Shown here piece by piece: positions 7,456 through 64,000 of a stretch of DNA of 64,000 bases (position 1 is its first letter; each line of letters opens with the position of its first letter). The stretch lies in the NCBI GenBank assembly GCA_900313615.1, contig OMRP01000016.1, positions 7,505 through 71,504 on the forward strand, in the 5' to 3' direction. The notes under the pieces are model-generated. The model ran no database searches. It saw nothing but the letters and a program-made list of their open reading frames with translations, and was not told where the DNA came from. The DNA is from an uncultured Prevotellaceae bacterium (GTDB lineage: Bacteria; Bacteroidota; Bacteroidia; Bacteroidales; Bacteroidaceae). A program made the translations under genes and the position numbers.

Positions 7456-7513
7456 ATTCTCATATTGGGGCGTATCAGAAGTTTACTTTCTGTTTCTTTC
7501 TTGAGAGCTTGAT

Positions 7514-48713: not shown

Positions 48714-48775
48714 TACAACCATCAGTCAATTCAACAAACGATTTGGGTTCAGGTGGTATTCGAATCACAAGACGA

Positions 48776-49078
48776 TTACAGCCATCTGTCAAGGGCATGC
48801 CAGCCGCCACCTTTAGACGGAATCATTAGAAAAATAATAACCGCAACAATAAAGGCAGGGAAAAAAACTTTGACGCTGGCTTCTACGTGGCCTGCTTTGA
48901 ACAGTCGCACTACAGAAATCCATAGAGCAATGTCAAGGCACAGCACAACGAAATCCTGTTCGGACTGAATGGGGAGGCACGCGGCATCATATACCGTTGT
49001 TCGAACTATACGGGGATATACAAGACATAGAGCCACCTGGCGAATTCGCGGATAGGTAACTCCGGCCCGCGATAGCAA
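48776..49078 (-). CDS. Possible small membrane protein (cassette 1)
   Basis: Two hydrophobic segments; start uncertain. Confidence 0.3.
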   Translation of the reverse strand: MLSRAGVTYPRIRQVALCLVYPRIVRTTVYDAACLPIQSEQDFVVLCLDIALWISVVRLFKAGHVEASVKVFFPAFIVAVIIFLMIPSKGGGWHALDRWL

Positions 49079-49253
49079 AAAAGACCCAGAGCCGTGTCGT
49101 GTGGCTTTTACACATCACACCTTGTCAAGAAGAGCCTTATTTTGCCCATAACCTTTAAAAGGTATTAAAAACATTACTTTTGTTTGCGGTTTATTTGGTA
49201 GGTGGTATTATTTTTATTACCTTTGTATCGTCAAGTAATAAAACATCGCAGCT

Positions 49254-49448
49254 ATGAAAAGATACAAAGTTAAAGAGATTATCAAACTTCTTGAAAGCGA
49301 TGGATGGTATCTCTCTGCGACAAAAGGAGACCACAGACAGTTCAAGCACCCGAAGAAGCCAGGGAAAGTGACGGTGAGGGGAAAAGACAGTGAGGTCTTG
49401 AATCAGTTCTTACTGAACAGCATCTGGAAACAAGCGGGGTGGAAATGA
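49254..49448 (+). CDS. hicA: HicA toxin (cassette 1)
   Basis: LESDGWY...KGDHRQFKHP.KPGKVTV. Confidence 0.9.
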   Translation: MKRYKVKEIIKLLESDGWYLSATKGDHRQFKHPKKPGKVTVRGKDSEVLNQFLLNSIWKQAGWK

Positions 49449-49501
49449 CCAGCCTTGCTTATCGACAACAACAAACCAAAACAAAAGACAAAAATACAAC
49501 A

Positions 49502-49915
49502 ATGGAAAAAATCAGAGTAGACGTACAATGGTGCGACAAGAATTTCGGAGCCTCTCTTGGCGAGAATGTGCCCGGTGCCGTAGTGGTAACCGCAAAGACA
49601 TACGAACAATTGCTCAACGATGTGCCTGAATCTCTTCGTTTCCATGTGGAGGGCATGCTTGCCGATGGCGACGACGTGCCCCAGTGGTTGCGCAACGGGG
49701 ACTATGAGCTGGAATACAACCTTGTTGACACAGCCACCATGCTCCATGCCTTTGAGCCTCTTTTGTCGCTTGCCGCCATTAGCAGGGTCACCGGTATCAA
49801 CCAGCATCAGCTATCCCACTACGCCAACGGATTGAAGCAGCCCCGCCCGCAGCAACGGCAGCGCATCGTGGACGGCATCCACAAGATTGGTCGTGAACTA
49901 TTGGCTGTTGTATAA
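49502..49915 (+). CDS. hicB: HicB-like antitoxin with C-terminal HTH (cassette 1)
   Basis: Follows hicA; HVEGMLADGDDVP, TGINQHQLSHYANG. Confidence 0.82.
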   Translation: MEKIRVDVQWCDKNFGASLGENVPGAVVVTAKTYEQLLNDVPESLRFHVEGMLADGDDVPQWLRNGDYELEYNLVDTATMLHAFEPLLSLAAISRVTGINQHQLSHYANGLKQPRPQQRQRIVDGIHKIGRELLAVV

Positions 49916-50161
49916 GTTTTATTGTTTGACGACATTGCTTAGCGTCAGCTTGGCGGGGCATCACTGTCCCGGTCTTTTTCTTACTATCGTTTTCCTTTAT
50001 TGTCCAGCCACCGCAGGAACCAAATGAAGAGACCGACGACAACAATGGTGACAGCCACGTCGACGGCGCGTTTTCACTGCTCCTAAAACGAAGGCTACTT
50101 GACCGCTTCTTTTGTTCAATTTGTCGTTTAAAACGGTTTGGGTTCAGGTGGTAATCGAACC

Positions 50162-50407
50162 TCAATCGCCGCCGTCAGAACTTTCATAGGGGTTATAGTA
50201 AAAACCACCACCCTCAATTACTCCATTATGGCAATATTTCCATACCCACCACTGGATGGGAAATGTAATGATAGGAAGTAAAGCAAAGCTCAGGAGTGTA
50301 AACAGGAAACCACGGAACCAGGTCCTCGGCCACCAACCTCCACAGTAAAAGAGGAAAAGCGCAACCGACACACCTACTATCCATAATATAGTCCAAAGAG
50401 TTTCCAT
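50162..50407 (-). CDS. Small two-TM protein, METLW family copy A (cassette 2)
   Basis: 81 aa; stop codon abuts the repeat. Confidence 0.8.
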   Translation of the reverse strand: METLWTILWIVGVSVALFLFYCGGWWPRTWFRGFLFTLLSFALLPIITFPIQWWVWKYCHNGVIEGGGFYYNPYESSDGGD

Positions 50408-50441
50408 GATTATTAGTTTAATAGAATCTGTCCTAATAGCA

Positions 50442-50678
50442 TCATGGGGCATCACAATAAGCCGAACTTTCACCGAGTCCTTCATCTAACCATCCACCAT
50501 TGCAAAACTTCCATATAACGTATTGGATGGGAAAGGTAACTATAGGAAGGAAAGCGAAACTCAATAGCGTAAAAAGAAATCCACGGAACCACGTCCTCGG
50601 CCACCAACCTCCGCAGTAGAAAAGAATCAGTGCAATAGTTACACCTACAATCCATAATATAGTCCAAAGAGTTTCCAT
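50442..50678 (-). CDS. Small two-TM protein, METLW family copy B (cassette 2)
   Basis: 78 aa; upstream TTTG-N20-TATTTTTG promoter. Confidence 0.8.
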   Translation of the reverse strand: METLWTILWIVGVTIALILFYCGGWWPRTWFRGFLFTLLSFAFLPIVTFPIQYVIWKFCNGGWLDEGLGESSAYCDAP

Positions 50679-50809
50679 AATCTCTATTTTAGGGATTTCT
50701 GCAACAAAAATAACATTATTATTATTATTTTCCAAATTAATTCACCTTTATTTTGGTCTTACGGTTTAAAACATTTTGGGTTCAGGTGGTATTCGAACCT
50801 CAATCTTCC

Positions 50810-51196
50810 ATGTCTCTCGAACTCTGCCAGCAGCACATACAGCGCGGCATACGCGACATCTTCAATGCACAGCTACAGATAGCCGAGCGGCGCATCTACG
50901 GATTCACGCGCCGGCCCGAACTCATCTCGCGCCGAACGAGGCACCTCCGGCGCGAACTCGCAGCTGCACGTCACTCCGTCAGTCATAGCGGGCAGGGGCT
51001 CACCGCCACCGCACAGGTGCCGCTCTACATCCGCTTCCTCGACATGAAGAAACACGGCAACCTCCAAATCTACAACCGGCAGATCTACGGCATACTCTAC
51101 CACCGGGTGCTCAACCGAATACGCTACGGCTACACCGACGAGATAGCACAACAAATAAGAAAAAGATTAATCGAAGCAGGAGCGGTACTAAGGTGA
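50810..51196 (+). CDS. Bacteroidetes prophage tail-region hypothetical protein (cassette 3)
   Basis: IRFLDMK...IYNR.IYGILY...IRYG motif; GC-rich. Confidence 0.6.
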   Translation: MSLELCQQHIQRGIRDIFNAQLQIAERRIYGFTRRPELISRRTRHLRRELAAARHSVSHSGQGLTATAQVPLYIRFLDMKKHGNLQIYNRQIYGILYHRVLNRIRYGYTDEIAQQIRKRLIEAGAVLR

Positions 51197-51200
51197 AAAG

Positions 51201-51437
51201 TCAGTCGTCACTACTGTAATCTGATCCTGGAAAAAGTTCGCCGTCTCCCCATCCGCCGCGATAAATCATCCAAATAACATATTGGATGGGCAATGTGATG
51301 ATGGGAGTGAATATGAGTGTCAACATAACAAAACAAAAACCACGCCACCATGTGCTGGGCCACCATCCTTTGCAATAGAAAAGGAAGAGAGCGACTGCTG
51401 TCACCAAACCGACTAATATAACCCAGAGAGTTTCCAT
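51201..51437 (-). CDS. METLW family copy C (cassette 3)
   Basis: 78 aa, FYCKGWWP.TW motif. Confidence 0.8.
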   Translation of the reverse strand: METLWVILVGLVTAVALFLFYCKGWWPSTWWRGFCFVMLTLIFTPIITLPIQYVIWMIYRGGWGDGELFPGSDYSSDD

Positions 51438-51448
51438 GGAAATAATTG

Positions 51449-51694
51449 CTAATTATAGGCGGCAGTACTTTCATAAGGGTCATAATGCCCACCGCTACCC
51501 TCTATTATACCGTTATGGCAATATTTCCAAACCCACCACTGGATGGGCAATGTGATGATGGGAGTGAATATGAGTGTCAACATAACAAAACAAAAACCAC
51601 GCCACCATGTTCTTGGCCACCATCCTTTGCAATAGAAAAGGAAGAGAGCGACTGCTGTCACCAAACCGACTAATATAACCCAGAGCGTTTCCAT
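51449..51694 (-). CDS. METLW family copy D (cassette 3)
   Basis: 81 aa; 5' ~155 bp nearly identical to copy C. Confidence 0.8.
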   Translation of the reverse strand: METLWVILVGLVTAVALFLFYCKGWWPRTWWRGFCFVMLTLIFTPIITLPIQWWVWKYCHNGIIEGSGGHYDPYESTAAYN

Positions 51695-51828
51695 AACGAC
51701 TTTTGTTTCTTGATGCAAAAATAAACGACGCATAATGCTTTTACAAGGGTTTTTCCCTATTGTTAAGGGGGAAAACCCCAAATTTATGTTAAGTTTAAAA
51801 CGGTTTGGGTTCAGGTGGTATTCGAACC

Positions 51829-52075
51829 AGAGGTTGGAAAGGGATTCGCTGAGCCCGGCAATATATTTTTTCTGCTCCCCGATATGTCTCTTCATGTCGT
51901 CGATGTTCTTCTGCATACTCCTGCCGGCTTCCGCATCACCTTTTTTCTTCGAGTTTAGGAGACGTTTCTGGGAGTCTTCGAGAGTTTTCAGCTCACTCTC
52001 GAGTTTTTTTAGTTCGTTCTGTGCGTTTTTGCTGTTTACGTCGATGACGGCTCTGAATACTTCTTCGTGTCCCAT
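51829..52075 (-). pseudogene. 5' fragment of a probable tape-measure protein, cut by a repeat (cassette 4)
   Basis: IDVNSKNAQNELKKLE coiled coil runs into repeat 4. Confidence 0.55.
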
Positions 52076-52141
52076 AATAATAGGTGGTATGTTTGCTTCT
52101 CTTGCAAATATACCACCTATATCTTTGGAGCGAAAATACCA

Positions 52142-52423
52142 CTAAGCCGGATTCCTCGACTCCTCGTATGTTTGTTGCACGATATCCTCCAGTTCTCTCT
52201 TCGACTTAGCCCTTAATGTGGTAATTTTATTTATAGAAGACAGCCAAAGGACGGCACAATATTCATTATTCTTGAAATCAACATACGCACTAACTACCTT
52301 ATTCTCGCTACCGAGATCATACATGTTCCTTAGCCTGATTTTGGCCTCAGGTCTATCCTTTTTTTGTCTTCCCATCAGCCAGACAATTATCCAGGATGTT
52401 ATTAAAAGTGCGAGAAATTCCAT
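52142..52423 (-). CDS. Small membrane-anchored protein (cassette 4)
   Basis: 93 aa with an N-terminal TM segment. Confidence 0.65.
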   Translation of the reverse strand: MEFLALLITSWIIVWLMGRQKKDRPEAKIRLRNMYDLGSENKVVSAYVDFKNNEYCAVLWLSSINKITTLRAKSKRELEDIVQQTYEESRNPA

Positions 52424-52491
52424 ATATAGTATGTTTAGTGTTCGTTGTAAAAACCCCCTATACTCCCGCACCGGGGGCTGAAGAGTTCTAT

Positions 52492-52935
52492 CTAAAATGA
52501 TTTATTAAGACGCTGCACGGTAGGTTGCTCTAAAGGCAGACCGTGAGCCAAATCACTTGCAAACTTATTGATACCTTCGCGTATCTTCTTGACCTGGGCC
52601 TCGTGAGGTACTCGCAATGACGCGATATATTGTCGAAGCACAGAAGCGTTCATGCCGATGTATTTTGCGAATGCTGTCACATCGATTGGGTAATAGTCAA
52701 AAAACGAACCTATGTCAAGCCTGAAGTCAAATTGTACTTCAGGGAATCTACGTCCCTCTTCTTCCTCCATTTCTTTGTATTCTTTTACAGTGACAATGAT
52801 GTCATCCATCGCTTCGCGGGCGGTCTTGCCATAGCCGGCCAGGCCACACTTACCGACAGGATCGGGAGAAAAGCATGAGAAATTACCTTTTCCTTTTCCG
52901 CGTTCAACGTAAACAATTCTCTTAACGGTTCCCAT
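52492..52935 (-). CDS. hicB: Orphan HicB-like antitoxin (cassette 4)
   Basis: GYGKTAREAMDD, FAKYIGMNASVLRQY HTH. Confidence 0.78.
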   Translation of the reverse strand: MGTVKRIVYVERGKGKGNFSCFSPDPVGKCGLAGYGKTAREAMDDIIVTVKEYKEMEEEEGRRFPEVQFDFRLDIGSFFDYYPIDVTAFAKYIGMNASVLRQYIASLRVPHEAQVKKIREGINKFASDLAHGLPLEQPTVQRLNKSF

Positions 52936-53019
52936 ATATAATGAGTTATAAATATTATCAAAGTAAAGAGTCCTATTATTAATTAGCAAAGTAATTCGGC
53001 ATGGAAAAAGTTGTGGGGG

Positions 53020-53061
53020 TTATTCCCCCAACAACTTTTTTAAGATTTCTCGGAGAGTACC
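53020..53061 (-). pseudogene. Last 13 codons of a hicA-like gene, cut by repeat 5
   Basis: Translates to GTLREILKKLLGE*, upstream of hicB. Confidence 0.6.
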
Positions 53062-53157
53062 GTTTAAAACGGTTTGGGTTCAGGTGGTATTCGAACCGGA
53101 ATTGCTCCAATTCTTTGGACACCTTCAGTTTACTTTGTCTCTCCATCGCCACACCAT

Positions 53158-53343
53158 TTAAAAGCCCATAGCATCCATCATCGCATCGTATTCCATAGGA
53201 TTACTTGGCATGTCACCATACATGCCGTCAGTCAGCGCATCCCAGGAATCCTCTTCTGTCCATTCGTAGCCACCTTCATTGTAGCTTTCGCACTCGTAAT
53301 CATCGTACTCTTCATAAGAGTCATCATAATAATCTCTTGCCAT
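53158..53343 (-). CDS. Very acidic 61-aa protein (cassette 5)
   Basis: D/E/Y-rich with a single basic residue; only gene in a 301-bp cassette. Confidence 0.75.
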   Translation of the reverse strand: MARDYYDDSYEEYDDYECESYNEGGYEWTEEDSWDALTDGMYGDMPSNPMEYDAMMDAMGF

Positions 53344-53562
53344 AATCTTTTGTTTTTAATCGTTATTACTCTTATTTCTTTACCAAAACACTCTGGGCGT
53401 TTAAAACGGTTTGGGTTCAGGTGGTATTCGAACCCAAAAGTACTTTTTTTCTGAATTATTGATTAAAATGGTTATGTTAATATAGTATTTTAACCTCAAT
53501 GCCTGTCGGTGTCTTAGTTGTGGTTTTATTGAATACGCGATGTTGCATATCTTATATCTTTG

Positions 53563-54168
53563 CTATGTGATATAAAGCATTCGGTATTTCAATCGCGCAC
53601 TATGACACTTTGGGCAGTACAGCGGGTCATCATTTCCTTTTAGTATGTCTTCCTCCTTATTTCTGATTATTGAGCCACATTTTGGACAGACGAAATCTTT
53701 ATCAGACTCTCCAAACGTATGATATTGTTTACTCTCGTTGTGTTCTATAACGAATGCATGGCAGTTAGGGCATTGCCTGCCAATATCACATGACACCGCA
53801 CCATGAACGAAACTTATAATATCCTCATGGTAACCACAGTCGCAACATTCAATCTTTCCCGCGCCACCCATTTGGGAAAAACAGAGATAATGTTCATCCG
53901 GTTTCAAACCCAATTTCTTTTTCAACATAATTTCCTCTTTATCTTTTTTCTTTTCTTCTCTTGTTTTCTTGTATTTGCTAACTGCTACATTAATTAAAAT
54001 TACAGGTAGGAACACGGTTGCGAAGGGTGCCGTAATCAGAAGAGTCAACCACTGCTTAAACGTTGTTTTCTCTGAATCCTTGTTCTTCTTGTTATTATAG
54101 ACCCGAATGCTGATGGTTAAAACAAGACTTATAAACCAATAGATGAGTACATAATGAATCCAATTCAT
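53563..54168 (-). CDS. Two-TM protein with four CxxC zinc-ribbon motifs (cassette 6)
   Basis: CCDC, CPNC, CPKC, CPKC; own TATATTTG promoter. Confidence 0.75.
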   Translation of the reverse strand: MNWIHYVLIYWFISLVLTISIRVYNNKKNKDSEKTTFKQWLTLLITAPFATVFLPVILINVAVSKYKKTREEKKKDKEEIMLKKKLGLKPDEHYLCFSQMGGAGKIECCDCGYHEDIISFVHGAVSCDIGRQCPNCHAFVIEHNESKQYHTFGESDKDFVCPKCGSIIRNKEEDILKGNDDPLYCPKCHSARLKYRMLYIT

Positions 54169-54292
54169 AGTTTTCCCTTCTGTATTGTTTAAGATTAAAA
54201 TGGTTCTGTTACTTATAGAAACTTTGCAAATATAAACATAATAATCGACACAAACAAAATAAATGGGCAAAAGCCTAAAATATGGCACGGAT

Positions 54293-54583
54293 TTATAAAA
54301 ACACTTCCATACCATTGAGGTTATCATAGACCAGCCCGGAGCCGTAGCAGACCTCCGCATTGAAGAGCTGGCACGTCGAAAGTGTCTCGTCGCTTTCTAT
54401 GAGGTCGAGGACACGGAAAGGCAGATTGTTGTCGCCTCCCCACGGCATATAGGCGAGGTTTTTGTCAACGATGAAGGGAGCGGTGTCCTCCGATTCACGG
54501 AAGACTTCGGAGGAGTTGACCGTAAAAGCAGCACTTGCTTTGAGGTCGGGGATGAGTTCTACGCTGTTAAAAGAAAAATCCAT
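54293..54583 (-). pseudogene. N-terminal fragment of a phage portal protein (cassette 6)
   Basis: PWGGDNNLP...DETLSTCQLFNAEVCYGSGL; ends after ~90 aa. Confidence 0.65.
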
Positions 54584-54649
54584 AACTTTGTTTTTGATGC
54601 AAAGTTATGGATTGGTATGTGATGGGGAAAAGACAATAACTATAGACTA

Positions 54650-55099
54650 TTAGTCATTGTCGATGTTCTTTAACATGAAAAGGCACCTTCCTTTTCTATA
54701 GTCTTTAGGTGACAATCTCTTTTTACAATCAAACGCATTTTTATAATCGACAACGTCCCATTCCCATGCTTCCTGCATGATATATTTTTTATCGTATAAA
54801 ATCCATATAAGTTTATCCCACTCATAGTTGGTTGCTTTAGGAGCCATTGTCACGAAGCTACCAGGCTTTCCACTGGGACGATTGGCTTTTACTTGGTATC
54901 TTATGCCATTGAAGACAAAATCAGCCCCCTTGCTAACAGCGGTTTTGTCTTGCATATATTCAGAATATTGGTCTTCAGACATTCCTATGAGCATTGCAGC
55001 ATCATACTCTGAAAGAGAACTGGTAATCGATGGTGATACTCCAAATTTACTTTGCCATGCTAAAGCAATTTCAACAAGATTATCTCTAAGCATATACAT
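54650..55099 (-). CDS. PD-(D/E)XK-like nuclease-fold protein (cassette 6)
   Basis: SEYDAA...GADF...YQVK. Confidence 0.55.
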   Translation of the reverse strand: MYMLRDNLVEIALAWQSKFGVSPSITSSLSEYDAAMLIGMSEDQYSEYMQDKTAVSKGADFVFNGIRYQVKANRPSGKPGSFVTMAPKATNYEWDKLIWILYDKKYIMQEAWEWDVVDYKNAFDCKKRLSPKDYRKGRCLFMLKNIDND

Positions 55100-55225
55100 T
55101 ATTTTTAAGTTTAAAACGGTTTGGGTTCAGGTGGTATTCGAACCGACGAGTATTTTTATCTTAAAAGTTACGGGATTTGGCATGTCGTGTCCTTTTTTTT
55201 TATTATATTTGCAAAAAAAACAAGA

Positions 55226-55501
55226 ATGAAGTTAAAGAAACGAGGTAAGAAACTCTTCGCCTACCTTTTAGTGGCACTGCTCTCTTTTCCGGTGGCATTG
55301 ATTTCATGGTGCTCATCTTGGTATGATGTATGTACCGTAAGTCTCATTATTTTCGTTTTTTCTGTAGTCAAAAGTATCTGTATATATTTGGCCAACTTTT
55401 ACGACAAATACGGGCTTTTGAGCAGGCAAGGGCCAGACACACTGTTCGAATACGAGCCGGGCGACAAAGAGTATGAAGAAGAGAAGAAATGGCAGCGATA
55501 G
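55226..55501 (+). CDS. Small two-TM protein (cassette 7)
   Basis: 91 aa, own promoter; TAG stop is completed by the first G of repeat 8. Confidence 0.75.
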   Translation: MKLKKRGKKLFAYLLVALLSFPVALISWCSSWYDVCTVSLIIFVFSVVKSICIYLANFYDKYGLLSRQGPDTLFEYEPGDKEYEEEKKWQR

Positions 55502-55579
55502 TTTAAAACGGTTTGGGTTCAGGTGGTATTCGAACCCTGAATTTTTTTGGAGATTAAAAAAATTTGTTTATCGTTTGCA

Positions 55580-55653
55580 ACGAGGATTCCGTAGCTAATG
55601 ACTACCGATTCTTCGCCAGAATGAGGAATGAGCAATCATTCCTCAAACTTTTT
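55580..55653 (+). ncRNA. Candidate sRNA, two hairpins (cassette 8)
   Basis: Stem with 7-nt CUAAUGA loop; perfect 10-bp tgaggaatga-gcaa-tcattcctca hairpin plus U-tract. Confidence 0.5.
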
Positions 55654-55725
55654 ATAGAACACAAATGATATGGTGGAGTTGAATTTCGTTCATTTTGTTG
55701 TATTTTTGCAGTAAAAAAATCAGTT

Positions 55726-56160
55726 ATGACTATTATATCCAACTCCGAAGACAGCAAAACAACATTTCTCGAGCTAATAAATCAGAGAAGAGCTTTGAAC
55801 AACGAACTGTCAGTTGTGCTTCGCCATTACACAGGCATATCGTCCACTCTACTTGCTCTATTGGCTGTGTTTGGTGATATAGCTTCGTTTTCCCTTCCAG
55901 TAAGGATTCTGATTTCAGCGAGTATGACGTGTTTACTTTCATCTGTTCTGTCGGGAGTGTGGTGCTGTATGGCAGTTTATCTAACACGCGAAAGAGCCAT
56001 GGGAAGAGTTCTCGAACAGCTGAGGACGAAAGCCGGAAATGCTCAAGGGTCAGTATCTCCCCCTTTCGGATTCTCCTTTTTTGTGCGATTCTGCCCCACC
56101 ATGTTGTGCTTGGGCGTTCTATTCTTATGGCTGAGCGCCATGTTTTTGTTGTTTTTTTAA
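55726..56160 (+). CDS. Three-TM membrane protein (cassette 8)
   Basis: 144 aa, hydrophobic segments, TATTTTTG -7 element. Confidence 0.7.
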   Translation: MTIISNSEDSKTTFLELINQRRALNNELSVVLRHYTGISSTLLALLAVFGDIASFSLPVRILISASMTCLLSSVLSGVWCCMAVYLTRERAMGRVLEQLRTKAGNAQGSVSPPFGFSFFVRFCPTMLCLGVLFLWLSAMFLLFF

Positions 56161-56223
56161 TGCTTTCTTCCATTTTTTTTGTGTTTTTTATTTGGAAGTT
56201 AAAATATTTTGTTTATCTTTGCA

Positions 56224-56290
56224 GTTGGAATAGCATCAGGGTTGAGCCTTGGATTGTAACTCCAGGTAGTTCTTCCTTTTTGCTATTTCT
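56224..56290 (+). ncRNA. Candidate sRNA with a tRNA-anticodon-like hairpin, convergent on the MuF gene end (cassette 8)
   Basis: TTTG-N19-TATCTTTG promoter; CTTGGA-TTGTAAC-TCCAGG; closing gaatagca/tgctattt stem. Confidence 0.5.
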
Positions 56291-56954
56291 TTTTTATGTA
56301 TTTCTTTATTTCTTCTGGATTGTCAGAAATGGAATGGAGGACGTATTCTCCCCAGTCCCACTCCCAAACAATTATACATTGTTCATCCCCTTTTACCTTA
56401 GTGGAGAAAATATGACTTTGCTTTAATTTTGGCTTTTGGTTATGAGGCGGAAGTGTCGATGGTCCCAGGTATTCACACTCTTTTTCTTCAAACACTTCAT
56501 TTATACGTAGTAGCATCTTGTTTTTTTCTTGATAGTGTTTGTTGGGTTGGTTGGTCCATTCTGTTATTGATGCTCTTGATATATTTATAGGATGGGGAAA
56601 TTTCGATGTGTTGATAGAAGTCCCCTGTAGTGGTTTGGCTTGTTTCCTTGTCTGCTTGGCATCAGCATTTGCTAATGATCTGACAATCCGGCATGCTGCA
56701 CACAGTTCATTCTCGGGCACGAAAGCGAGGTTGACTTTTCCCTGTGCGATGTCGCAGTCTCGGCAACGTCGTATGGTGTATGGGTTGTAGTCCGGAATAG
56801 TCTTCTGCTCTATGCCTGGATTGAAGTGGAAGATGCCCTTGTTGTCCTTTCCGGTTGCCGCCTCTCCGAGTGCCATTGCCTCGTCGTGCGGGGTCACGGG
56901 ATACTTTGACTTGCGGACCTGGACAACAGTGCATCGGCAGTTCCAGCCGTTTGG
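56283..56954 (-). pseudogene. 3' fragment of phage head morphogenesis protein (MuF) with C-terminal extension, cut by repeat 9
   Basis: Begins PNGWNCRCTVVQVRK directly at the repeat. Confidence 0.8.
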
Positions 56955-56990
56955 GTTTAAAACGGTTTGGGTTCAGGTGGTATTCGAACC

Positions 56991-57151
56991 GTGAGTATGG
57001 CCCTTCCCTGGTTCCTGACAGGCGACTTTCGTCGCTGCCAAGCCTGGGAGAAGAAGGCCTGACGTTCGAAGTTCCGGTCGAACTCGTCGGTGAGTTCTAC
57101 CTGAATGTCGCGGAGGATGTTTTTTATTATTTTCTGAATATTTTCGGGCAT
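56991..57151 (-). pseudogene. 5' fragment of phage virion morphogenesis protein (Mu gpG-like), cut by repeat 9 (cassette 9)
   Basis: DIQVELTDEFDRNFERQAFFSQAWQRRKS. Confidence 0.72.
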
Positions 57152-57188
57152 TTTGTTTGGAGGTTAGGGATTTCTTTGTATCTTTGCA

Positions 57189-57275
57189 GTGTCCTTAGTG
57201 ACTACCCGCTGAGTATGCGTGGGGATTGGGCTTTATCGTACCGTCCCATTTGGCTGTCTTCGGATAGCCTTTTTT
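57189..57275 (+). ncRNA. Candidate sRNA with promoter and terminator (cassette 9)
   Basis: TTTG(57156)-N19-TATCTTTG(57179); ggctgtc-ttcg-gatagcc-T6 terminator; no ORF inside. Confidence 0.55.
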
Positions 57276-57425
57276 ATTGTTCGATACGTTTTCTGAACTC
57301 CTTGTAGAACGTTCTCTTCATAACAAAGTTCCTTTCCACAGACACCATCTTTTTCCCAACTGCTACCAGCACTTCCAGTGCCTCGTTGTTAGCCTCGAAG
57401 TATTGTTTGATTTCTGTGGCCATTC
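57274..57425 (-). pseudogene. 3' end of an upstream phage gene (probably a MuF extension), cut by repeat 10
   Basis: 49-aa tail MATEIKQYF...FRKRIEQ*; upstream of the virion morphogenesis gene. Confidence 0.45.
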
Positions 57426-57483
57426 GTTTAAAACGGTTTGGGTTCAGGTGGTATTCGAACCATTAAAAATGAAATAAGTCATT

Positions 57484-57729
57484 TTAATCGCTACTACTAT
57501 AAAACGCAGCACTCTTTTGTGTGTTGCCATCTCCATCTCCCCATCCACCATGGTAAATCATCCATATAACATACTGAATAGGGAAAGTGATAATCGGAGT
57601 AAACAGACAAGTCAATATGATAAACAAAAAACCACGAAACCATGTACTGGGCCACCATCCTTTACAATAAAAAAGGAAGAGAGCCACCGTCAGCACAACC
57701 CCAACCAATATTGTCCAAAGCGTTTCCAT
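57484..57729 (-). CDS. METLW family copy E (cassette 10)
   Basis: 81 aa; upstream promoter region homologous to cassette 2. Confidence 0.8.
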   Translation of the reverse strand: METLWTILVGVVLTVALFLFYCKGWWPSTWFRGFLFIILTCLFTPIITFPIQYVIWMIYHGGWGDGDGNTQKSAAFYSSSD

Positions 57730-57860
57730 GATTTCTGATTGAAATAACTTCACCACAAAAATAATATTAATAATAATATTTTCCAAATTAATTCACCTTT
57801 ATTGTTTAAAACGGTTTGGGTTCAGGTGGTATTCGAACCTATCGGCATTGCGAACAATTC

Positions 57861-57940
57861 AGGTTGCCTGATTCATAGTTTGGGAACACGCTTTTTATAG
57901 TTGTTTCGGTGGCAGTAGGTTAACCGATTCATAGTTTAGG
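57861..57940 (+). repeat. Iteron-like direct repeats upstream of rep
   Basis: aggttgcctgattcatagtttggg / aggttaaccgattcatagtttagg (20/24 identical, 56-bp period). Confidence 0.5.
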
Positions 57941-57970
57941 CAATTATTATATGTATATACATACGTGCGT

Positions 57971-59239
57971 ATGGAGAAGAAACAAGGAATATCGAAAGAG
58001 GAAATGCGCCAGTTGGTGGAGTCGCATTCGTGGATCAAGTCGCCGTTCGCCTACACCAAACTGGGTGCCAACCTCTCGCTGGTGCAGCAGCAGTCGCTCC
58101 TCATGGTCAGCGACCATCTGCAGACGTATATCAAGGACTTCTACAACCTAAAACTGGATAAGTCGAAGAAGCGCCCCAAGTCGCTGTTCACGGAGCACCT
58201 TTTGAAGAACGGAATACCTCCGTTCCGCATCTATCTGGCCGACCTCGGTGTGCAGGCGGGCAACTACCGCGACGTGCGCAAGGCCATCAACGAAATGGCG
58301 GTGATGGTGGAGCACCCAGTGCTCGACGATGACGGCATCCCCACGGGTGAGACGGCCTTTAACCCGGTCTTCGAGGAGTTCAGGGTGAAAGAGACTGGCG
58401 ACTACTACCACTACGAGCGCGAGAATGAGGAGGGGCTGATGGAAATGGCGGAGTCGGTGCGGCACTATGGCTACATCGACGTGCAGATCAACCCGAAGGT
58501 GGCCGAGTGGGCTTTTGATATGTCGGCGGGATATGTGAACCATTTGAAACTGATAGCGCGTTATAGTACAAAGCGCCCCACGCCGCGCCTCTATCTCATG
58601 CTGATGCGGGCGATAGGGCAGGGGAAGAAACGGGTGCGCTACACGCTTCAGGAATTAAAGGAATACCTCGGTATCGTGCCCTACGTCAACGAGAAGGGCG
58701 AGACAGTGACACCTTACCCCAAGTTCGCCCACTTCCGCATCAAGGTGCTCGACGCGGTGCGCGACGACCTCGACCGCATGGCGAAACTCAACCAGACGGA
58801 CATCCGATTTGAGTATGATCTGATTTATCCCGGCAGCCGTAAGCGTGGCGAACCTGAATATATTGAGTTCAAGATTGAGCGCACTCAGTTGGGCGATGCG
58901 TATAATGTTATCGTCAATCACCAGCCGTCTGAGATAAAGCAGCAACCCCGTCAACAAGAACTTTTTATGGAAGAGTATAAAGAGAAGTTTAAACAGTGCT
59001 TGGCAGAAATGGCTGAAAAGGTTGAAGATGACAGTGTAAAAGCGAAATTGAAAATGATGCAGTTTGAGCATTTCGACACAACCAAGAAGGTGCTTTACAT
59101 TCAACTGCCCGACTCCGACTATTACCAATGGATAGAGAGCGACAACGTAATCCGATTCGTATGGGGACATCTTTCCAAGCATTTCGGGAAAAGCATCCAG
59201 CTCCAATATAGGCTGTTGAAAAATTCACCGAAACCGTGA
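57971..59239 (+). CDS. Rep_3/RepB-like replication initiator (cassette 11)
   Basis: RLYLML, TLQELKEYLGI, YPKFAHFRIKVLD winged-helix pattern. Confidence 0.8.
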   Translation: MEKKQGISKEEMRQLVESHSWIKSPFAYTKLGANLSLVQQQSLLMVSDHLQTYIKDFYNLKLDKSKKRPKSLFTEHLLKNGIPPFRIYLADLGVQAGNYRDVRKAINEMAVMVEHPVLDDDGIPTGETAFNPVFEEFRVKETGDYYHYERENEEGLMEMAESVRHYGYIDVQINPKVAEWAFDMSAGYVNHLKLIARYSTKRPTPRLYLMLMRAIGQGKKRVRYTLQELKEYLGIVPYVNEKGETVTPYPKFAHFRIKVLDAVRDDLDRMAKLNQTDIRFEYDLIYPGSRKRGEPEYIEFKIERTQLGDAYNVIVNHQPSEIKQQPRQQELFMEEYKEKFKQCLAEMAEKVEDDSVKAKLKMMQFEHFDTTKKVLYIQLPDSDYYQWIESDNVIRFVWGHLSKHFGKSIQLQYRLLKNSPKP

Positions 59240-59312
59240 CAACCTGTACCAAATGTTAAAATCGAAAAGGGTATATTTGCATCGTAAACGAATATATCCT
59301 TTTTGATTTTTT

Positions 59313-59594
59313 ATGAGCGAGGAAAACGAAAAGAAATCTCCGACCCTTGATGATTTCATCATCACCGAGAAGGTGGATGCCTTCTGCAAGCAGTATCGCC
59401 CGGTCAAGGAACACACCTTCGCTACCGAGGCTTTCAACGAAGAGCGGCTGCGTGAGTTCTTCAAGGCTTACGAACTGTTCTCGCAGGGCGACCCTTTGAA
59501 GGTGTATATCGACGAGCTGGCCGCACGCGACTATCACATGTCCGTATCGGTATATGGCGAGCCAGCTATTATAGTGGAGGAAAAATTCGACTGA
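59313..59594 (+). CDS. Phage hypothetical protein (cassette 11)
   Basis: 93-aa ORF with TATATTTG promoter. Confidence 0.65.
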   Translation: MSEENEKKSPTLDDFIITEKVDAFCKQYRPVKEHTFATEAFNEERLREFFKAYELFSQGDPLKVYIDELAARDYHMSVSVYGEPAIIVEEKFD

Positions 59595-59628
59595 CATCTA
59601 TCAAACCAATCAAAATAATTGTATCAGC

Positions 59629-60456
59629 ATGGCAAAATATTATTATGAGTTTCCTTTCGACAGCAAGGAGGGCAGGGCACTGGCAAAGTTCCACCACGCC
59701 TGCGTCAACGCCGAGCGCATGGCGGAGAAGTATGCGAAAGGTATGGGGGCGGTGTCTTATTATACAAGCCCGCATTACTTCACCGGCGGCGTGGAATACT
59801 TGGTCTTCGCAGATCCCAAGAAGGTGAACACCGACATCTGGAGGCTGGCCAACAAGACTAAAGACGGCGAACAATGGTGGGAACCTAATGTGGAGAAAGT
59901 GGCGGGGTGCGTGAAGGCGCGTGAGAATTTCACGCCATCAGACGTGGCCGGGCGCACTTATTCCAAACGTCCCAGCACATGGGACGAGGTGCGCAGGACG
60001 TACACTCTGGACGAATGGCTGGCTTTCATAGGATTCAAGACATCCGGCGACAAGGAGATAGACAGCAAGGCCATAGTGGGCTTGTTGGGCGACAAGCAAT
60101 TCTACAAGTACATCGACATCATCCCGAATGCCGCTCCCGTGGCGGGCAGGAAACGAAGTCGTGACGGGTCTAAAGCCGTGACCGCCGAGCAGGAGCGGAT
60201 GAAACTGCCGGTCGTCAGGACAGAAGACTTTTACCAGATAGTTCATGCCCACAACGTAGCCGCCGAAAACGAAAAAGAAGGAAAGCCCCTGAAGGTGGAT
60301 GAGAGCACGCCTGTGTTTTTCGCCCATGCTGGGAAGTGGAACATCGGGCTTGACCGTCTAATAGACTGCGGGGATTATGACGGCTTCGCGGAAATCACCG
60401 CAGGGATGTTCACGGCAAGGAAAAACTTCATGCTGCGAGAATTGAATAGGAAATAG
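59629..60456 (+). CDS. Phage hypothetical protein (cassette 11)
   Basis: 275-aa ORF. Confidence 0.65.
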   Translation: MAKYYYEFPFDSKEGRALAKFHHACVNAERMAEKYAKGMGAVSYYTSPHYFTGGVEYLVFADPKKVNTDIWRLANKTKDGEQWWEPNVEKVAGCVKARENFTPSDVAGRTYSKRPSTWDEVRRTYTLDEWLAFIGFKTSGDKEIDSKAIVGLLGDKQFYKYIDIIPNAAPVAGRKRSRDGSKAVTAEQERMKLPVVRTEDFYQIVHAHNVAAENEKEGKPLKVDESTPVFFAHAGKWNIGLDRLIDCGDYDGFAEITAGMFTARKNFMLRELNRK

Positions 60457-60475
60457 AAAACGGCAATTCTCCCAA

Positions 60476-61126
60476 TTACCGTTTGTTGGGGTTTACGTGT
60501 GGGCGCGGAGCGTCTCCGTAATCTGCCACACCTTCGGGGCTGTAACCGCTATAGGAAGACTGGCGCCCGCCTTGCGTGAGTGCCAGTCTTATTGTTTGCA
60601 TCCCGTCGCTCACCATGTCCTTGTATTCGTCTATCCGAGCTTCATATTGGCTGATGCGCTCTTCGTATTGCCGGCGCATATCATCTTCACGCTCCTGATA
60701 TTCTCTTCTAAGCTGTGCCTCTTTCTTCAGCTGCTCGTCTTTTATCCGTTGAATCTCCTGCATGTGGTCAATTTTCATTTGCAGGATTTCCATCTGCGAT
60801 GTATTATCTTTCTCGTTCTTTTCATTTTTCGTCGCTTCGCTTTGCAGCCGTTCATCCCCTCGCACTGAGGCGCGATGTGCCGTTTTTGGAATGACTGTCG
60901 CCGGACTGTCGCCGTCAAGAAAGAACTCCGAAAGGTCTATGTCATAAAGATTGCAGAGCAGCACCATTTTTTCTACTGGCAGAGGATTGGTCTTGTCCTT
61001 CATCCATCGTTTCAGGCTCACATTATTCACCTCCAGGTCTTTCATAAGTTGGGTGAGTTTTAGCCCCGACTTCTCGAACCACTGTCCAAAGAAATCGGCG
61101 TTGTACGAATACTTTTTCATAATCAT
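60476..61126 (-). CDS. XRE/CI-like HTH repressor with coiled-coil C-terminus (cassette 11)
   Basis: LTQLMKDLEVNNVSLKRWM...LLCNLYDIDLSEFF; divergent overlapping promoters upstream. Confidence 0.72.
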   Translation of the reverse strand: MIMKKYSYNADFFGQWFEKSGLKLTQLMKDLEVNNVSLKRWMKDKTNPLPVEKMVLLCNLYDIDLSEFFLDGDSPATVIPKTAHRASVRGDERLQSEATKNEKNEKDNTSQMEILQMKIDHMQEIQRIKDEQLKKEAQLRREYQEREDDMRRQYEERISQYEARIDEYKDMVSDGMQTIRLALTQGGRQSSYSGYSPEGVADYGDAPRPHVNPNKR

Positions 61127-61251
61127 TCTGGTTTATGTTTGACAAATGCTTTTCTTAAAAAATGTTTATCTAATCAAAATAAATAATCATTATAGATTGA
61201 TATTTATTTTAGTTTCGTACTTTTGCAACAAAGTTACAAAATATCAATGAA

Positions 61252-61322
61252 ATGACAAAAGAAGTATTTTTGAAATTGCACGCCCCTGGCGGTCATCTTG
61301 AAGCAAAAGACCTGACCGCCGA
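61252..61322 (+). pseudogene. Start of the divergent early gene, cut by repeat 12
   Basis: MTKEVFLKLHAPGGHLEAKDLTA runs into the repeat. Confidence 0.5.
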
Positions 61323-61358
61323 GTTTAAAACGGTTTGGGTTCAGGTGGTATTCGAACC

Positions 61359-61476
61359 CTTTAATTGGTAATTTTTTGAGGCAAAGATAGTTGTAATTTT
61401 TATAATTACAAAAAAATGAAAGAAATAATGAGCAATTTATATTATTCCTTCATTTTTTTAGTAATTTAGCCGAAAA
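61359..61476 (-). promoter_or_regulatory. Array leader with a promoter facing into the array
   Basis: AT-rich; minus-strand TTTG(61412-61409)-N19-TATCTTTG(61389-61382); palindrome TTGTAATT-N5-AATTACAA. Confidence 0.78.
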
Positions 61477-62334
61477 ATGGCAAAGCAAACTTTAGTATTC
61501 GAATCATCAAAAGAACTATCCTTAAGAGATGGTATGTTGGTCATTACCAACAGGGAGACTGAAGAGACGACATTGCGCTCGTTGGAGGACATCCAGATGA
61601 TCATGGTGGATAATCATTCCGTCAAGATAACGATTCCTCTCATCGCTAAATTATCGAAATTAAATATCGGTGTTGTGTTCTGCGACGAGAAACATATGCC
61701 TGTGTCGATGTTGTTGGATTTGGAATCTAATACCTTGCAGTCGAAAAGGATAAGATGTCAGTTGGCTGCATCAAAACCAGTCAATAAACAAATATGGAAA
61801 CAAATTGTAGAGGCTAAAATCCGTAACCAGTCTTTATTGCTTGAGAAATTGGGCATTGGCAAATCATTGCTTGCCACCTACTACAACAATGTCAAAAGTG
61901 GCGATTCCACCAATCGGGAAGGGATGGCTGCAAGAGTGTATTGGTTGAAACTCATTGGAAAGAACTTTATTCGTGATAGGTTTGGAGGACCTCCGAATGC
62001 TCTCCTTAATTACGGCTATACCGTGCTCCGTTCTATGGTGGCCAGAAGTCTCATGAATGCAGGACTGCTTCCTCTCGTGGGAATCTTCCATCATAATTGT
62101 CACAATGCTTTTCCTTTGGCCGATGATGTTATGGAACCATATAGACCTTATGTTGACTATCGGGTAATAATAATGCTGAAAGAAGGACTGACGGAAGTGT
62201 GCAGAGAATCGAAGAGACGGCTATTGGAATTATTTTATCAAGATATTTCTGCTGACGCAATGTCATTGACGGCTTCTTCACTGGCTGGTATTTATGAAGA
62301 AGATGGTAGAGTTATTGTTTATCCAACGATTTGA
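61477..62334 (+). CDS. cas1: CRISPR-associated integrase Cas1 (type II-like)
   Basis: FCDEKHMP, KIRNQ, SGDSTNREG, NALLNYGY, GIFHH, LADDVMEPYRP. Confidence 0.95.
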   Translation: MAKQTLVFESSKELSLRDGMLVITNRETEETTLRSLEDIQMIMVDNHSVKITIPLIAKLSKLNIGVVFCDEKHMPVSMLLDLESNTLQSKRIRCQLAASKPVNKQIWKQIVEAKIRNQSLLLEKLGIGKSLLATYYNNVKSGDSTNREGMAARVYWLKLIGKNFIRDRFGGPPNALLNYGYTVLRSMVARSLMNAGLLPLVGIFHHNCHNAFPLADDVMEPYRPYVDYRVIIMLKEGLTEVCRESKRRLLELFYQDISADAMSLTASSLAGIYEEDGRVIVYPTI

Positions 62335-62338
62335 AAAT

Positions 62339-62653
62339 ATGTGGATCTATGTTGTTACAAGTTTCACCCGCTATAACAAGGTGGGACGAAAAGCAAAGGA
62401 TGTTTTTCAAAAGTCAATAGTTAAAGATGGATTCTTCCAACTACATGAGAATCTGTATGTCAGGTATTGCAGCACGGTAGGTAATGCTAATATGCATAAA
62501 GAACGAGTAAAGAACGTCATACCGATAAAGTGTTGCGATGTGAGCATTATTATGACCGCTGATAGTCAGGAAAGCAATATCTATCACAGCCTTAATAGGA
62601 AAAGGTCAAAATGTATTGTTTATGGAAAACATGGCAATGTGGAATTCTTCTAG
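62339..62653 (+). CDS. cas2: Divergent Cas2 (type II-like)
   Basis: Follows cas1; KDGF.QL...YVRYC...A..H.ERVK..IP; usual FD(L)P motif replaced by TSFT. Confidence 0.82.
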   Translation: MWIYVVTSFTRYNKVGRKAKDVFQKSIVKDGFFQLHENLYVRYCSTVGNANMHKERVKNVIPIKCCDVSIIMTADSQESNIYHSLNRKRSKCIVYGKHGNVEFF

Positions 62654-62666
62654 AATTGTTTTACTA

Positions 62667-62712
62667 AACAAAGAGCCATTTCCCTCTTTAAGACAGGAAA
62701 CGGCTCTTTGTT
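62667..62712. terminator. Bidirectional terminator between cas2 and rpiB
   Basis: aacaaagagcc...ggctctttgtt. Confidence 0.7.
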
Positions 62713-62732
62713 ATATTGCTACAAACTGAGCG

Positions 62733-63173
62733 TTACACCGGAATCTTGTCGATGCGACGCTGGTGGCGACCACCTTCGAAGTCGGTGGCGAAATATTCGT
62801 CCATAATCTTGCGAGCCATGTCTTCATCGATGAAACGACCAGGCATGACGAGCACATTGGCATCGTTGTGCTGACGGATGAGATGGGCAATCTCGGGAAT
62901 CCAGCACAGGCCGGCGCGAATGGATTGGTGTTTGTTGAGGGTCATGTTGATGCCTTCGCCGCTACCACAGACAGCGATGCCGGGATAGACCTCGCCAGCT
63001 TCGATGCCGCGTGCCAAGGCATGGCCGAAGTCGCTGTAGTCGCACGAGTCCTCCGTGTAGGTGCCATAGTCCTTGTAAGCGTAACCTTTTTCTTCCAGGT
63101 ATTGCTTGACGAATTGTTTCAAAGCATAGCCAGCATGGTCGCTGGCTATGCCTATGGTTTTGAATTCCATCAT
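62733..63173 (-). CDS. rpiB: Ribose-5-phosphate isomerase B
   Basis: ASDHAG, CGSGEG, HNDANVL, FEGGRHQRRI. Confidence 0.95.
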   Translation of the reverse strand: MMEFKTIGIASDHAGYALKQFVKQYLEEKGYAYKDYGTYTEDSCDYSDFGHALARGIEAGEVYPGIAVCGSGEGINMTLNKHQSIRAGLCWIPEIAHLIRQHNDANVLVMPGRFIDEDMARKIMDEYFATDFEGGRHQRRIDKIPV

Positions 63174-63223
63174 AATTGCTAATCCTAAATTTTGAATTGT
63201 TAATTATGAATTGTGAATTGTAA

Positions 63224-64000
63224 TTATCCTAACAGTTTCTTCACCTGCTCGTAGACGTTCTGGCCGTTGTAGCCCAGTTTCTCATCGAGCACTTTGTAAG
63301 GAGCGGAGAAGCCGAAACTCTGCAGACCCCATACGGTACCGTCGGCACCTACAAGACCTTCGAGAGTGACAGGCAGACCTGCAGTCATACCAAACTTCTT
63401 CTTGCCAGCGGGGAGCACGCTCTGTTGGTATTCCTTCGATTGGTTGCGGAACAAGCCCTCGGAAGGAACGCTCACGATGCGCACTTTCACACCGTCTTCG
63501 CGGAGCAGTTTGGCACCGGCCTCGAGGGTCGACACTTCTGAACCGGAGGCGAGCAGTATCACATCATAGTCTTCATCACTACCAGCCACTACATAAGCAC
63601 CCTTCATGGCCTGCATGTAGTCGTTGCCTTCGGGCAACATGTCGATGTTCTGGCGCGAGAAGATGAGCGCCGTCGGCGTATCGGTGTTCTCCATAGCCAT
63701 GCGCCAGCAGACGGTTGTTTCCTCTGCGTCGGCAGGACGAACAACCAACATGGAGTTCTTGCCGTGGTGGTTCTTCAGTTTCTCCATCAGACGAATCTGT
63801 GCTTCCTGCTCAACAGGTTCATGGGTAGGACCATCCTCACCCACACGGAAGGCATCGTGTGTCCAGATGAACTTCACGGGCAACTCCATCAGGGCAGCCA
63901 TGCGCACTGCTGGTTTCATGTAGTCGGAGAATACGAAGAAGGTACCGCAGGCGGGGATGACACCTCCGTGGAGTGCCATACCGATGCAGCAGCAAGCCAT
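63224..64000 (-). CDS. tkt: Transketolase (C-terminal part)
   Basis: TFFVFSDY, VGEDGPTHEP, ASGSEV, FGFSAP. Confidence 0.95.
   Translation of the reverse strand: MACCCIGMALHGGVIPACGTFFVFSDYMKPAVRMAALMELPVKFIWTHDAFRVGEDGPTHEPVEQEAQIRLMEKLKNHHGKNSMLVVRPADAEETTVCWRMAMENTDTPTALIFSRQNIDMLPEGNDYMQAMKGAYVVAGSDEDYDVILLASGSEVSTLEAGAKLLREDGVKVRIVSVPSEGLFRNQSKEYQQSVLPAGKKKFGMTAGLPVTLEGLVGADGTVWGLQSFGFSAPYKVLDEKLGYNGQNVYEQVKKLLG

Follow-up and report, generated by a model that had tools for sequence, protein, structure and literature searches.

Long inserts between CRISPR repeats beside a type II-C-derived Cas1-Cas2 pair without an adjacent Cas9

INTRODUCTION

Spacer length in CRISPR arrays is held to be fixed by a Cas1-Cas2 ruler. 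The link between casposases, which integrate long DNA with defined ends, and CRISPR integrases, which integrate short DNA with any ends, is an open evolutionary question. Among described systems, the closest to the one analyzed here are the type II-C loci of Bacteroidota, which combine cas9, cas1, and cas2 with 36-nt repeats and 29- to 30-bp spacers (e.g., Riemerella anatipestifer, PMC6008519). The type II-A integrases of E. faecalis (5XVN), S. thermophilus, and S. pyogenes provide the closest Cas1 structure and follow a ruler of a 22-bp duplex plus a 4-nt overhang. In S. pyogenes, the Cas2 linker is organized by Y261 and R5 of Cas1 and by Y5 and R102 of Cas2 (PMC12216489), and in E. faecalis, movement of the linker shifts the His11 wedges from 83 to 100-104 Å (bioRxiv 2025.06.12.659315). 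Our literature search found no description of a system such as the one below. The nearest published case is the SiL-E1 pseudo-spacer of Sulfolobus islandicus LAL14/1, a mobile-element piece of ~2 kb between two perfect repeats with no extra bases (PMC3718332). SiL-E1 is a single accident in an ordinary array, whereas long inserts are the norm throughout the clade described here, which has protein changes of its own.

We describe a locus in a 64,000-nucleotide stretch of DNA from an uncultured Prevotellaceae bacterium (the window), together with its homologs. A branch of rumen and gut bacteria appears to have retained only the memory-writing half of CRISPR, storing between its repeats pieces of phage and other DNA of 0.15 to 3.5 kb each, many of them with complete small genes, instead of snippets of ~30 bases. 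The mark of this branch is a small deletion in Cas1. The window's Cas1 nests among those of type II-C, with the catalytic triad kept. As in type II-C, Cas1 and Cas2 are of type II, there is no Csn2 or Cas4, the leader ends in AG before a repeat that starts with GT, and addition is leader polarized with copying of the repeat. Unlike type II-C, there is no adjacent Cas9, the spacers of 153 to 3483 bp lie in either orientation with the same bias at both ends, Cas1 has an 8-residue deletion, Cas2 is reshaped, regular spacers of ~30 bp are absent (2 of 124 are 30 to 31 bp), and the array is upstream of cas1 in the window's subclade. The clade keeps the Cas2 C-terminal strand that docks on Cas1 in type II-A, but its spacers disobey the type II-A ruler, the Y261 hairpin and Y5 arm are missing, and there is no Csn2.

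Casposons offer a second likeness, in that a Cas1-family enzyme would join two distant DNA ends and the target is duplicated. However, the inserts here lack terminal inverted repeats and, as a rule, an integrase or PolB, cas1 lies outside the inserts (with one exception, L018), and a Cas2 partner is present. As in integrons, ordered gene-bearing units are added next to an integrase gene, and a promoter-like box is directed toward the array. Unlike integrons, the system has no tyrosine recombinase or attC, and its units cut through genes, lie in either orientation, and are bounded by identical copied repeats; unlike those of integron cassettes, the sources lack the repeat and are cut mid-gene. 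The system is thus CRISPR-adaptation-like in its site and repeat copying, casposase-like in its distant ends, and integron-like in its outcome. It departs from the defining features of type II-C CRISPR-Cas, casposons, and integrons alike and is not a member of a described family. What is new here is the Cas1 deletion at the Cas2 linker, the counterexamples that keep the Cas2 Asp, the two-ended base bias, the gap in spacer length between 33 and 150 bp, and a clean single acquisition.

RESULTS AND DISCUSSION

An array of long spacers beside cas1 and cas2

The genes flanking the array are cas1, cas2, rpiB, and a ZIP-type transporter gene. The features of the locus are as follows, with the strand where one is assigned.

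48731..61358, + strand: array of 12 co-oriented 36-nt repeats with spacers of 301 to 3483 bp
Repeat starts, + strand: 48731 (7 mismatches, trailer), 50126 (1 mismatch), 50764 (2 mismatches), 51793, 53062, 53399, 55109, 55501, 56955, 57426, 57804, and 61323
48767..50125: S11, oldest spacer, 1359 bp, a pair of 64-aa and 158-aa ORFs
50162..50763, - strand: S10, 602 bp, two METLW-family genes; G244 has the same source with other ends
50800..51792: S9, 993 bp, two METLW-family genes beside a cut prophage gene, laid out as in prophage L183
51829..53061, - strand: S8, 1233 bp, ORFs of 165 and 109 aa plus a cut coiled-coil gene
53098..53398: S7, 301 bp, a 61-aa acidic ORF; homologous sources extend past both sides
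53435..55108: S6, 1674 bp, a 149-aa ORF, a cut phage-like gene, and a zinc-ribbon membrane ORF
55145..55500: S5, 356 bp, a small hydrophobic ORF; full-length match, at 82%, to G035 prophage-like DNA
55537..56954: S4, 1418 bp, a cut phage gene (phrog_23416) and a whole 144-aa accessory ORF; 99% to G035 prophage-like DNA
56991..57425: S3, 435 bp, cut ends of two prophage genes; the sources continue without a repeat
57462..57803, - strand: S2, 342 bp, a promoter box and one whole small membrane-protein gene (METLW family)
57840..61322: S1, newest spacer, 3483 bp, a weak Rep3-like initiator ORF, two unknown ORFs, and a phage-type HTH regulator
61359..61476: leader, 118 bp, 80% AT, between the newest repeat and cas1
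61382..61389, - strand: TAnnTTTG box directed toward the array, at a distance of 23 nt from the repeat
61477..62334, + strand: cas1, type II-C derived, 285 aa (ORF, TIGR03639), catalytic E148/H205/D217/E220/R223 intact
62242..62259, + strand: site of the 8-residue Cas1 deletion (residues ~256 to 261), with the β9-β10 hairpin tip and a conserved RPL gone
62339..62653, + strand: cas2, 104 aa, with no Asp, no N-terminal arm, altered FRK and QFSVY, and the C-terminal EFF strand kept
62667..62712, + strand: terminator-like inverted-repeat hairpin after cas2, read from the sequence, facing the convergent rpiB

We take the TAnnTTTG box to be the Bacteroidota -7 promoter consensus, and the S8 coiled-coil gene is presumably tape-measure-like. 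Relatives of the S8 genes also occur in spacers of L002 and L141, and S1 additionally includes the beginning of a prophage gene that is cut off (96% to G132). None of the window's spacers matched its own genome (G000) outside the array. That genome (81.6% complete; of the Prevotella group, judging from its homologs) has one cas1, and we found no Cas9 and no ordinary CRISPR array in it. No recombinase gene adjoins the locus, and no IntI tyrosine recombinase lies by the array. Looking for an anti-repeat, we found no exact repeat match of at least 10 nt in 61359 to 64000 and no Rfam match, searches that a diverged or distant tracrRNA could escape. The repeat RNA folded no better than its shuffles (z, -1.3).

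A single Cas1 branch carries long-spacer arrays

We searched GTDB, assemblies, metagenomes, and viral contigs for homologs; the viral contigs contained no clade Cas1, and all of the data come from metagenome assemblies. The initial annotation of this locus had asked whether a Cas1 clade tracks with long-spacer arrays, and one does. Cas1 homologs of at least 52% identity formed one branch (22 rows; support, 100/100) nested in Bacteroidota type II-C. Next to it were L025 and L026, which have Cas9 and 29- to 30-bp spacers. Two or more repeats were present in 19 of the 22 rows, all 19 of them long-spacer, and in the remaining 3 a single repeat was followed by more than 100 nt in which no other occurred. 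The outgroup arrays, with 29- to 30-bp spacers, were all labeled short. Our claim covers only the branch defined by the Cas1 deletion.

No cas9 was found beside any clade cas1. Cas9 was also not found in G000 or in 8 of 11 other clade or remnant genomes; where it did occur, in 3 of the 12 carrier genomes, it belonged to separate II-C loci with their own Cas1 of 310 to 313 aa, two of them with 47-nt repeats. Close homologs beside ordinary arrays with an effector gene, the case that the annotation had named as refuting its proposal, were sought and not found: the close homologs adjoin long-spacer arrays and have no adjacent Cas9. The cas1-cas2 pair with long arrays occurs in many chromosomal settings and has been lost repeatedly (L167, L169, the G000 C18 remnant, and the L007 stop codon).

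Several remnants were seen. In G000, an orphan on C18 (127410 to 127925, - strand, L214) consists of a repeat, a 444-bp spacer, a repeat, a leader, and the first four cas1 codons; 348 bp of its spacer are 99.7% identical to the oldest L001 spacer, with other ends and in the opposite orientation. On C20 (191755; L215:5756), a lone degenerate repeat precedes DNA that is 83% like the same spacer, in prophage-like surroundings. L167:8779-11631 (G035) is the window's chromosomal site with an array remnant and cas1-cas2 deleted (window 61572 joined to 62668), and its older spacer begins with decayed cas1 and rpiB sequence. L169:8247-9442 (G244) is a related two-repeat array in which cas1 breaks off after ~140 bp and a prophage-like region follows. 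More long-spacer arrays lie on contigs without cas genes (L202, on G470 C82, and L203 to L205, in G468), some of which may be pieces of the main array.

Inserts are added one at a time at the leader

L198 has the same Cas1 as L196, L199, and L200 but carries one more spacer, of 557 bp, and one more repeat at its leader; the leader and the next spacer are identical. Degenerate repeats lie at the far end of arrays, and repeat variants occupy leader-side copies (L129, L141, and L008). The L198 comparison and the trailer degeneracy thus reveal leader-polarized addition with repeat duplication, a trait of CRISPR adaptation modules. L102 and L103 have the window's exact Cas1 and a different newest spacer, and strains of the window's species share an unchanged array. 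In the G035 array at the same chromosomal site, 1.1 kb of S11 is shared at 99% and the newest spacer is not shared.

Homologous prophage DNA matches to the last base of a spacer and then continues through the same gene with no repeat, mostly with 0 to 1 shared bases; in homologs, one junction (an S7 end) shares as many as 4. The newest spacer of L001 is a 414-bp piece of hisC that is 98% identical to the same genome's chromosome, and 7 of the 8 differences are at third codon positions, a pattern that points to an origin in sister-strain DNA. Self-like spacers such as this one persist. As far as assembled loci can show it, inserts are added singly at the leader-repeat junction with the 35- to 36-nt repeat copied, and they are arbitrary pieces of 153 to 3483 bp, in either orientation, that come from prophages, mobile DNA, or the chromosomes of sister strains.

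G035 also has, at L168:5691-12378, a patchwork of duplicated prophage head, tail, and accessory fragments by a tRNA cluster, with no CRISPR repeats and with matches to S3, S4, and S5. At L018:9846-13753, leader-cas1-cas2 lies between two repeats, and the second repeat is followed by a further 100 bp of leader, as if self-captured; L129:318-431 is a cas1 scrap at the far end of an array. Such apparent self-capture of the module (L018 and L129) is a possible route of spread.

Spacer lengths leave a gap, and both ends carry the same base bias

The 124 spacers comprised two of 30 to 31 bp, none of 33 to 150 bp, and 122 of 153 to 3483 bp (median, 479). Had the length tail continued, ~29 spacers would be expected in the gap. 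DNA stiffness would impose a floor near 150 bp on a loop, and we infer that the floor of ~150 bp in spacer length fits such a limit, although selection for useful length could account for part of the gap. A tight loop might show helical phasing, and we saw none in the 124 spacer lengths, which might count against looping. There was also no reading-frame (mod 3) bias in the spacers.

The bases 3 to 6 inward from the spacer ends favored A, with the peak at base 4 (137 of 244 ends; 56% versus 29%, p 5e-19). The bias was about equal at the two ends (57/96 and 50/96), so the distal end is as strong as the leader end. It was repeated in two held-out sets (15/22 and 17/34), and its level was never reached by 2000 internal controls (maximum, 0.43). 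Among 1305 ordinary II-C spacers, there was no bias toward A at base 4 and only a one-sided bias at base 1. Since A is favored at base 4 inward, T tends to lie four bases from the 3' end of the attacking strand. This position coincides with the 4-nt overhang that type II Cas1 splays (bioRxiv 2025.06.12.659315). In 122 spacers, we found no terminal direct or inverted repeats beyond chance, and this speaks against both a casposon and recombination through old spacers.

The two short spacers, of 30 and 31 bp (L007:10001-11134 and L229:896-996), are the newest in their own arrays, and both systems keep the Cas2 Asp discussed below; cas1 of L007 has a premature TGA at about codon 255.

Cas1 is catalytically conserved and has lost a hairpin

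The initial annotation had read the active-site motifs REG, GIFHH, and ADDVMEP in Cas1. We confirmed them in the ORF at 61477 to 62334, whose predicted catalytic residues are intact. The protein scored 276 bits on the TIGR03639 type II Cas1 model (cutoff, 120). Across 95 Cas1 homologs, E148, H205, D217, and E220 were invariant and R223 was present in at least 90%. The set corresponds to E149/H205/D217/E220/R223 of S. pyogenes Cas1 (PMC12216489), and its first four members also correspond to catalytic residues of Riemerella Cas1. The best structural matches of the Cas1 model were type II-A Cas1 (Z, 24.6; rmsd, 6.5; 278 aligned), and the E value was 1e-46 to type II versus 2e-15 to the casposase 6OPM.

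Cas1 had also been described as short with a compact C terminus. Its 285 aa are indeed fewer than those of its nearest II-C kin (293 to 298 aa), but they are normal against type II-A (288 to 289 aa), and the shortfall of 8 to 10 aa is due to an internal 8-residue deletion and not to a clipped end. The deletion was present in 22/22 clade proteins and 0/12 aligned outgroup proteins. After D217, 69 to 73 residues remain in almost all full-length homologs (P0001 to P0120), versus 77 to 81 in II-C. The deleted stretch contains RPL, which is at least 90% conserved in outgroup Cas1 and aligns with MYL of the S. pyogenes β9-β10 hairpin (Y261). In the Cas1 model, a predicted helix at 243 to 255 joins a helix at 259 to 273 directly at the deletion site. 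The losses shared by the clade coincide with the contacts that organize the S. pyogenes linker and so affect what braces the ruler. However, S. pyogenes Cas1 tolerates substitutions at residues 234 to 260 (PMC12216489), so the deletion may be a marker and not a cause. Both cas1 and cas2 are under purifying selection (dN/dS, 0.06 to 0.16 for both).

Cas2 is divergent, and its Asp is kept in part of the clade

We place the start of Cas2 at the ATG at 62339, which gives 104 aa, the length of its homologs; an ORF from 62294 would overlap cas1. It fell below the Pfam cutoff (15.9 versus 23.8 bits), and its model matched Cas2 best (8ia4; Z, 11.7; rmsd, 2.6; 76 aligned). The annotated divergence was therefore borne out: VVTSFT replaces FFDLP and the Asp is absent, in a protein that is still predicted to fold as Cas2. 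The basic tail that the annotation had pointed out, LNRKRSK, is present but not special, as a basic linker occupies the corresponding position in ordinary II-C Cas2.

All clade Cas2 proteins begin with MW, without the arm that aligns with Y3/Y5 of S. pyogenes. Common to the 22 members are the loss of this N-terminal arm, of the FRK Arg, and of the QFSVY Gln and the retention of the C-terminal EFF strand. However, the T. denticola-type Cas2 (8ia4) likewise begins without the arm, which counts against arm loss as the switch. The Asp is absent in the window's subclade (13 rows) and in L223 and is kept in eight members (L006, L022, L023, L196, L224, L226, L228, and L229). In the six Asp-keeping systems with visible arrays (L022, L023, L196/198, L006/7, L226, and L229), the spacers are mostly long. 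Grouping the Asp-less systems as one clade gave a p-AU of 0.475, a value compatible with such a clade but not establishing it.

How long fragments may be integrated, and what else could explain them

We consider it fairly probable, from the sequence evidence, that Cas1-Cas2 integrates both ends of a looped long fragment. A type II-C adaptation module would have lost Cas9 and become a long-fragment integrase. Two Cas1 dimers would each grip one end of the same long molecule, preferring T about four bases from the 3' end, and the intervening DNA would loop out rather than run along Cas2. Loss of the Cas1 β9-β10 hairpin and the Cas2 N-terminal arm would unbrace the Cas2 linker, and loss of the DNA-face residues of Cas2 (the FRK Arg, the QFSVY Gln, and later the Asp) would weaken the 30-bp path, so that the complex would accept a loop of at least 150 bp or, rarely, a 30-bp duplex. 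With no effector, nothing would be cut and self-like DNA would be tolerated. We infer an altered Cas1-Cas2 geometry. A predicted complex of two Cas1 and two Cas2 scored 0.30 (mark, 0.32), which speaks neither for nor against this geometry. That such a geometry lets the complex hold the two ends of a looped DNA as casposases do had been proposed in the initial annotation. The empty range of 33 to 150 bp, the same bias at both ends, and the exact repeat duplication are three independent points in favor of two-ended holding, and the casposase likeness is limited to the handling of two distant ends, with no terminal inverted repeats.

The annotation had assigned the cause to Cas2, whose loss of Asp would remove the spacer-length ruler. 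Neither 30-bp-class spacer belongs to an Asp-less system, and Asp loss may tighten the shift to long spacers. The eight Asp-keeping members and the long spacers in the six of them with visible arrays nevertheless refute it as a necessary step, so that we give this version hardly any credence; nor is the ruler wholly gone, given the leader-proximal spacers of 30 and 31 bp in L007 and L229. The loss of Cas9, the trimmer and PAM reader, might instead suffice, if any Cas9-less II-C Cas1-Cas2 inserts untrimmed long DNA and the protein changes drifted later. S. pyogenes Cas1-Cas2 alone does integrate untrimmed oligos in either orientation, whereas the Cas9 supercomplex gives ~30 bp (PMC8034620), and Cas9 loss and the Cas1 deletion fall on the same tree branch and are inseparable here. 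We nonetheless regard this as quite improbable: in cells, spacer size is independent of Cas9 nuclease activity, although the substrates there were short (PMC8034620), and neutral decay would be an unlikely source of a precise, clade-wide deletion at a Cas2-linker contact in genes under purifying selection.

Alternatively, Cas1 could join only one end (a half-site product), with host repair or a second Cas1 event finishing the other and with the protein changes incidental. Type II Cas1-Cas2 commonly yields half-site products when its substrates are long (PMC8390005), the S7-end junction shares up to 4 bases in homologs, and the leader-cas1-cas2 between repeats in L018 looks as if a cut at the junction had made one end. 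This explanation is unlikely in view of the A bias at base 4, equally strong at the distal and leader ends, and of the exact repeat copies on both sides, with 0 to 1 shared bases at most junctions. Lastly, cas1-cas2 could be a bystander of homologous recombination through old 30-bp spacers or of a different recombinase for which the repeat serves as the attachment site. Recombination was suggested for the single 2-kb archaeal pseudo-spacer (PMC3718332). We find it very improbable here: the ends of the 122 spacers have no direct or inverted repeats beyond chance, the sources lack the repeat, addition is leader polarized with no recombinase gene by the locus, and cas1-cas2 is kept under selection beside long arrays in many chromosomal settings.

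Cargo and possible function

The spacers contain prophage pieces, toxin-antitoxin-type and regulator genes, host fragments, and genes for many unknown small proteins. A TAnnTTTG box was present in 80 of 105 spacers (38 expected; maximum, 51), and 39 of the 105 had both a box and a whole ORF (11 expected; maximum, 20). Dinucleotide shuffles gave 73 boxes versus 152 seen. The promoter enrichment may thus stem in part, but only in part, from AT-rich breakage or capture bias. Cargo orientation was not biased (78 versus 74 boxes), and open frames run off 140 of the 244 spacer ends. In 11 of 12 leaders of the window's subclade, a box faces the array at 23 nt. The box is often at 83 to 84 nt in ordinary relatives and absent in the basal clade, where the array follows cas2 directly.

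The same gene families were captured repeatedly with different ends. The METLW family has five copies in the window array (50162 to 51700 and 57484 to 57786) and also occurs in two other arrays, again with different ends. Its products are two-helix membrane proteins of 80 to 100 aa that begin with METLW (ESM Atlas best, 0.84, to unnamed clusters), and in prophage L183 a METLW-family gene lies opposite the same neighbor gene as in S9. The proteins are candidate superinfection-exclusion factors. Known defense genes were not enriched in the spacers (PADLOC gave only HTH-type matches).

We see an even chance that selection retains those inserts that bring a promoter together with a complete small gene, in most cases a prophage accessory gene, giving an integron-style gene store. 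Capture could instead be real but neutral, with the array a DNA-exposure record of an orphaned module and the genes passengers. Many spacers are gene fragments, as their running-off frames indicate, cas1-cas2 has been lost repeatedly (L167, L169, the G000 C18 remnant, and the L007 stop codon), and strains of the window's species share an unchanged array. The purifying selection on cas1-cas2 without an effector, the enrichment of promoter plus gene, the repeated capture of the same small membrane genes, and the array-facing box fixed at 23 nt in 11/12 leaders speak against neutral capture, which we rate as a real but lesser possibility.

In its fullest form, our reading is of a two-protein CRISPR-derived integrase that inserts 0.15 to 3.5 kb of DNA with free, nearly sequence-independent ends at one fixed site, was switched to this by loss of the Cas1 hairpin and Cas2 arm, and serves Bacteroidales as an integron-like store of phage accessory genes, such as those for small membrane proteins that may block superinfection. 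We advance this whole only tentatively and would not call it probable. The clade looks like a natural third state of long DNA, any ends, and a fixed site. Its ordinary relatives are close (Cas1, ~50% identical) and the candidate change is precise, which puts the ruler within reach of an 8-residue swap. Should the reading hold in vitro, the pair would be a site-specific kilobase integrase and long-DNA recorder made of two proteins; if it is true, the arrays would represent a new route of gene capture.

Other features of the window

Elsewhere in the window, large ORFs of 561 and 779 aa lie side by side at 37501 to 41509; they have DGQQR motifs, and we take them to be a DUF262/GmrSD-type defense pair. 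The segments at 1191 to 2051 and 6769 to 7496 form long inverted repeats of ~78% identity, up to 246 nt, and are probably opposed paralogous genes.
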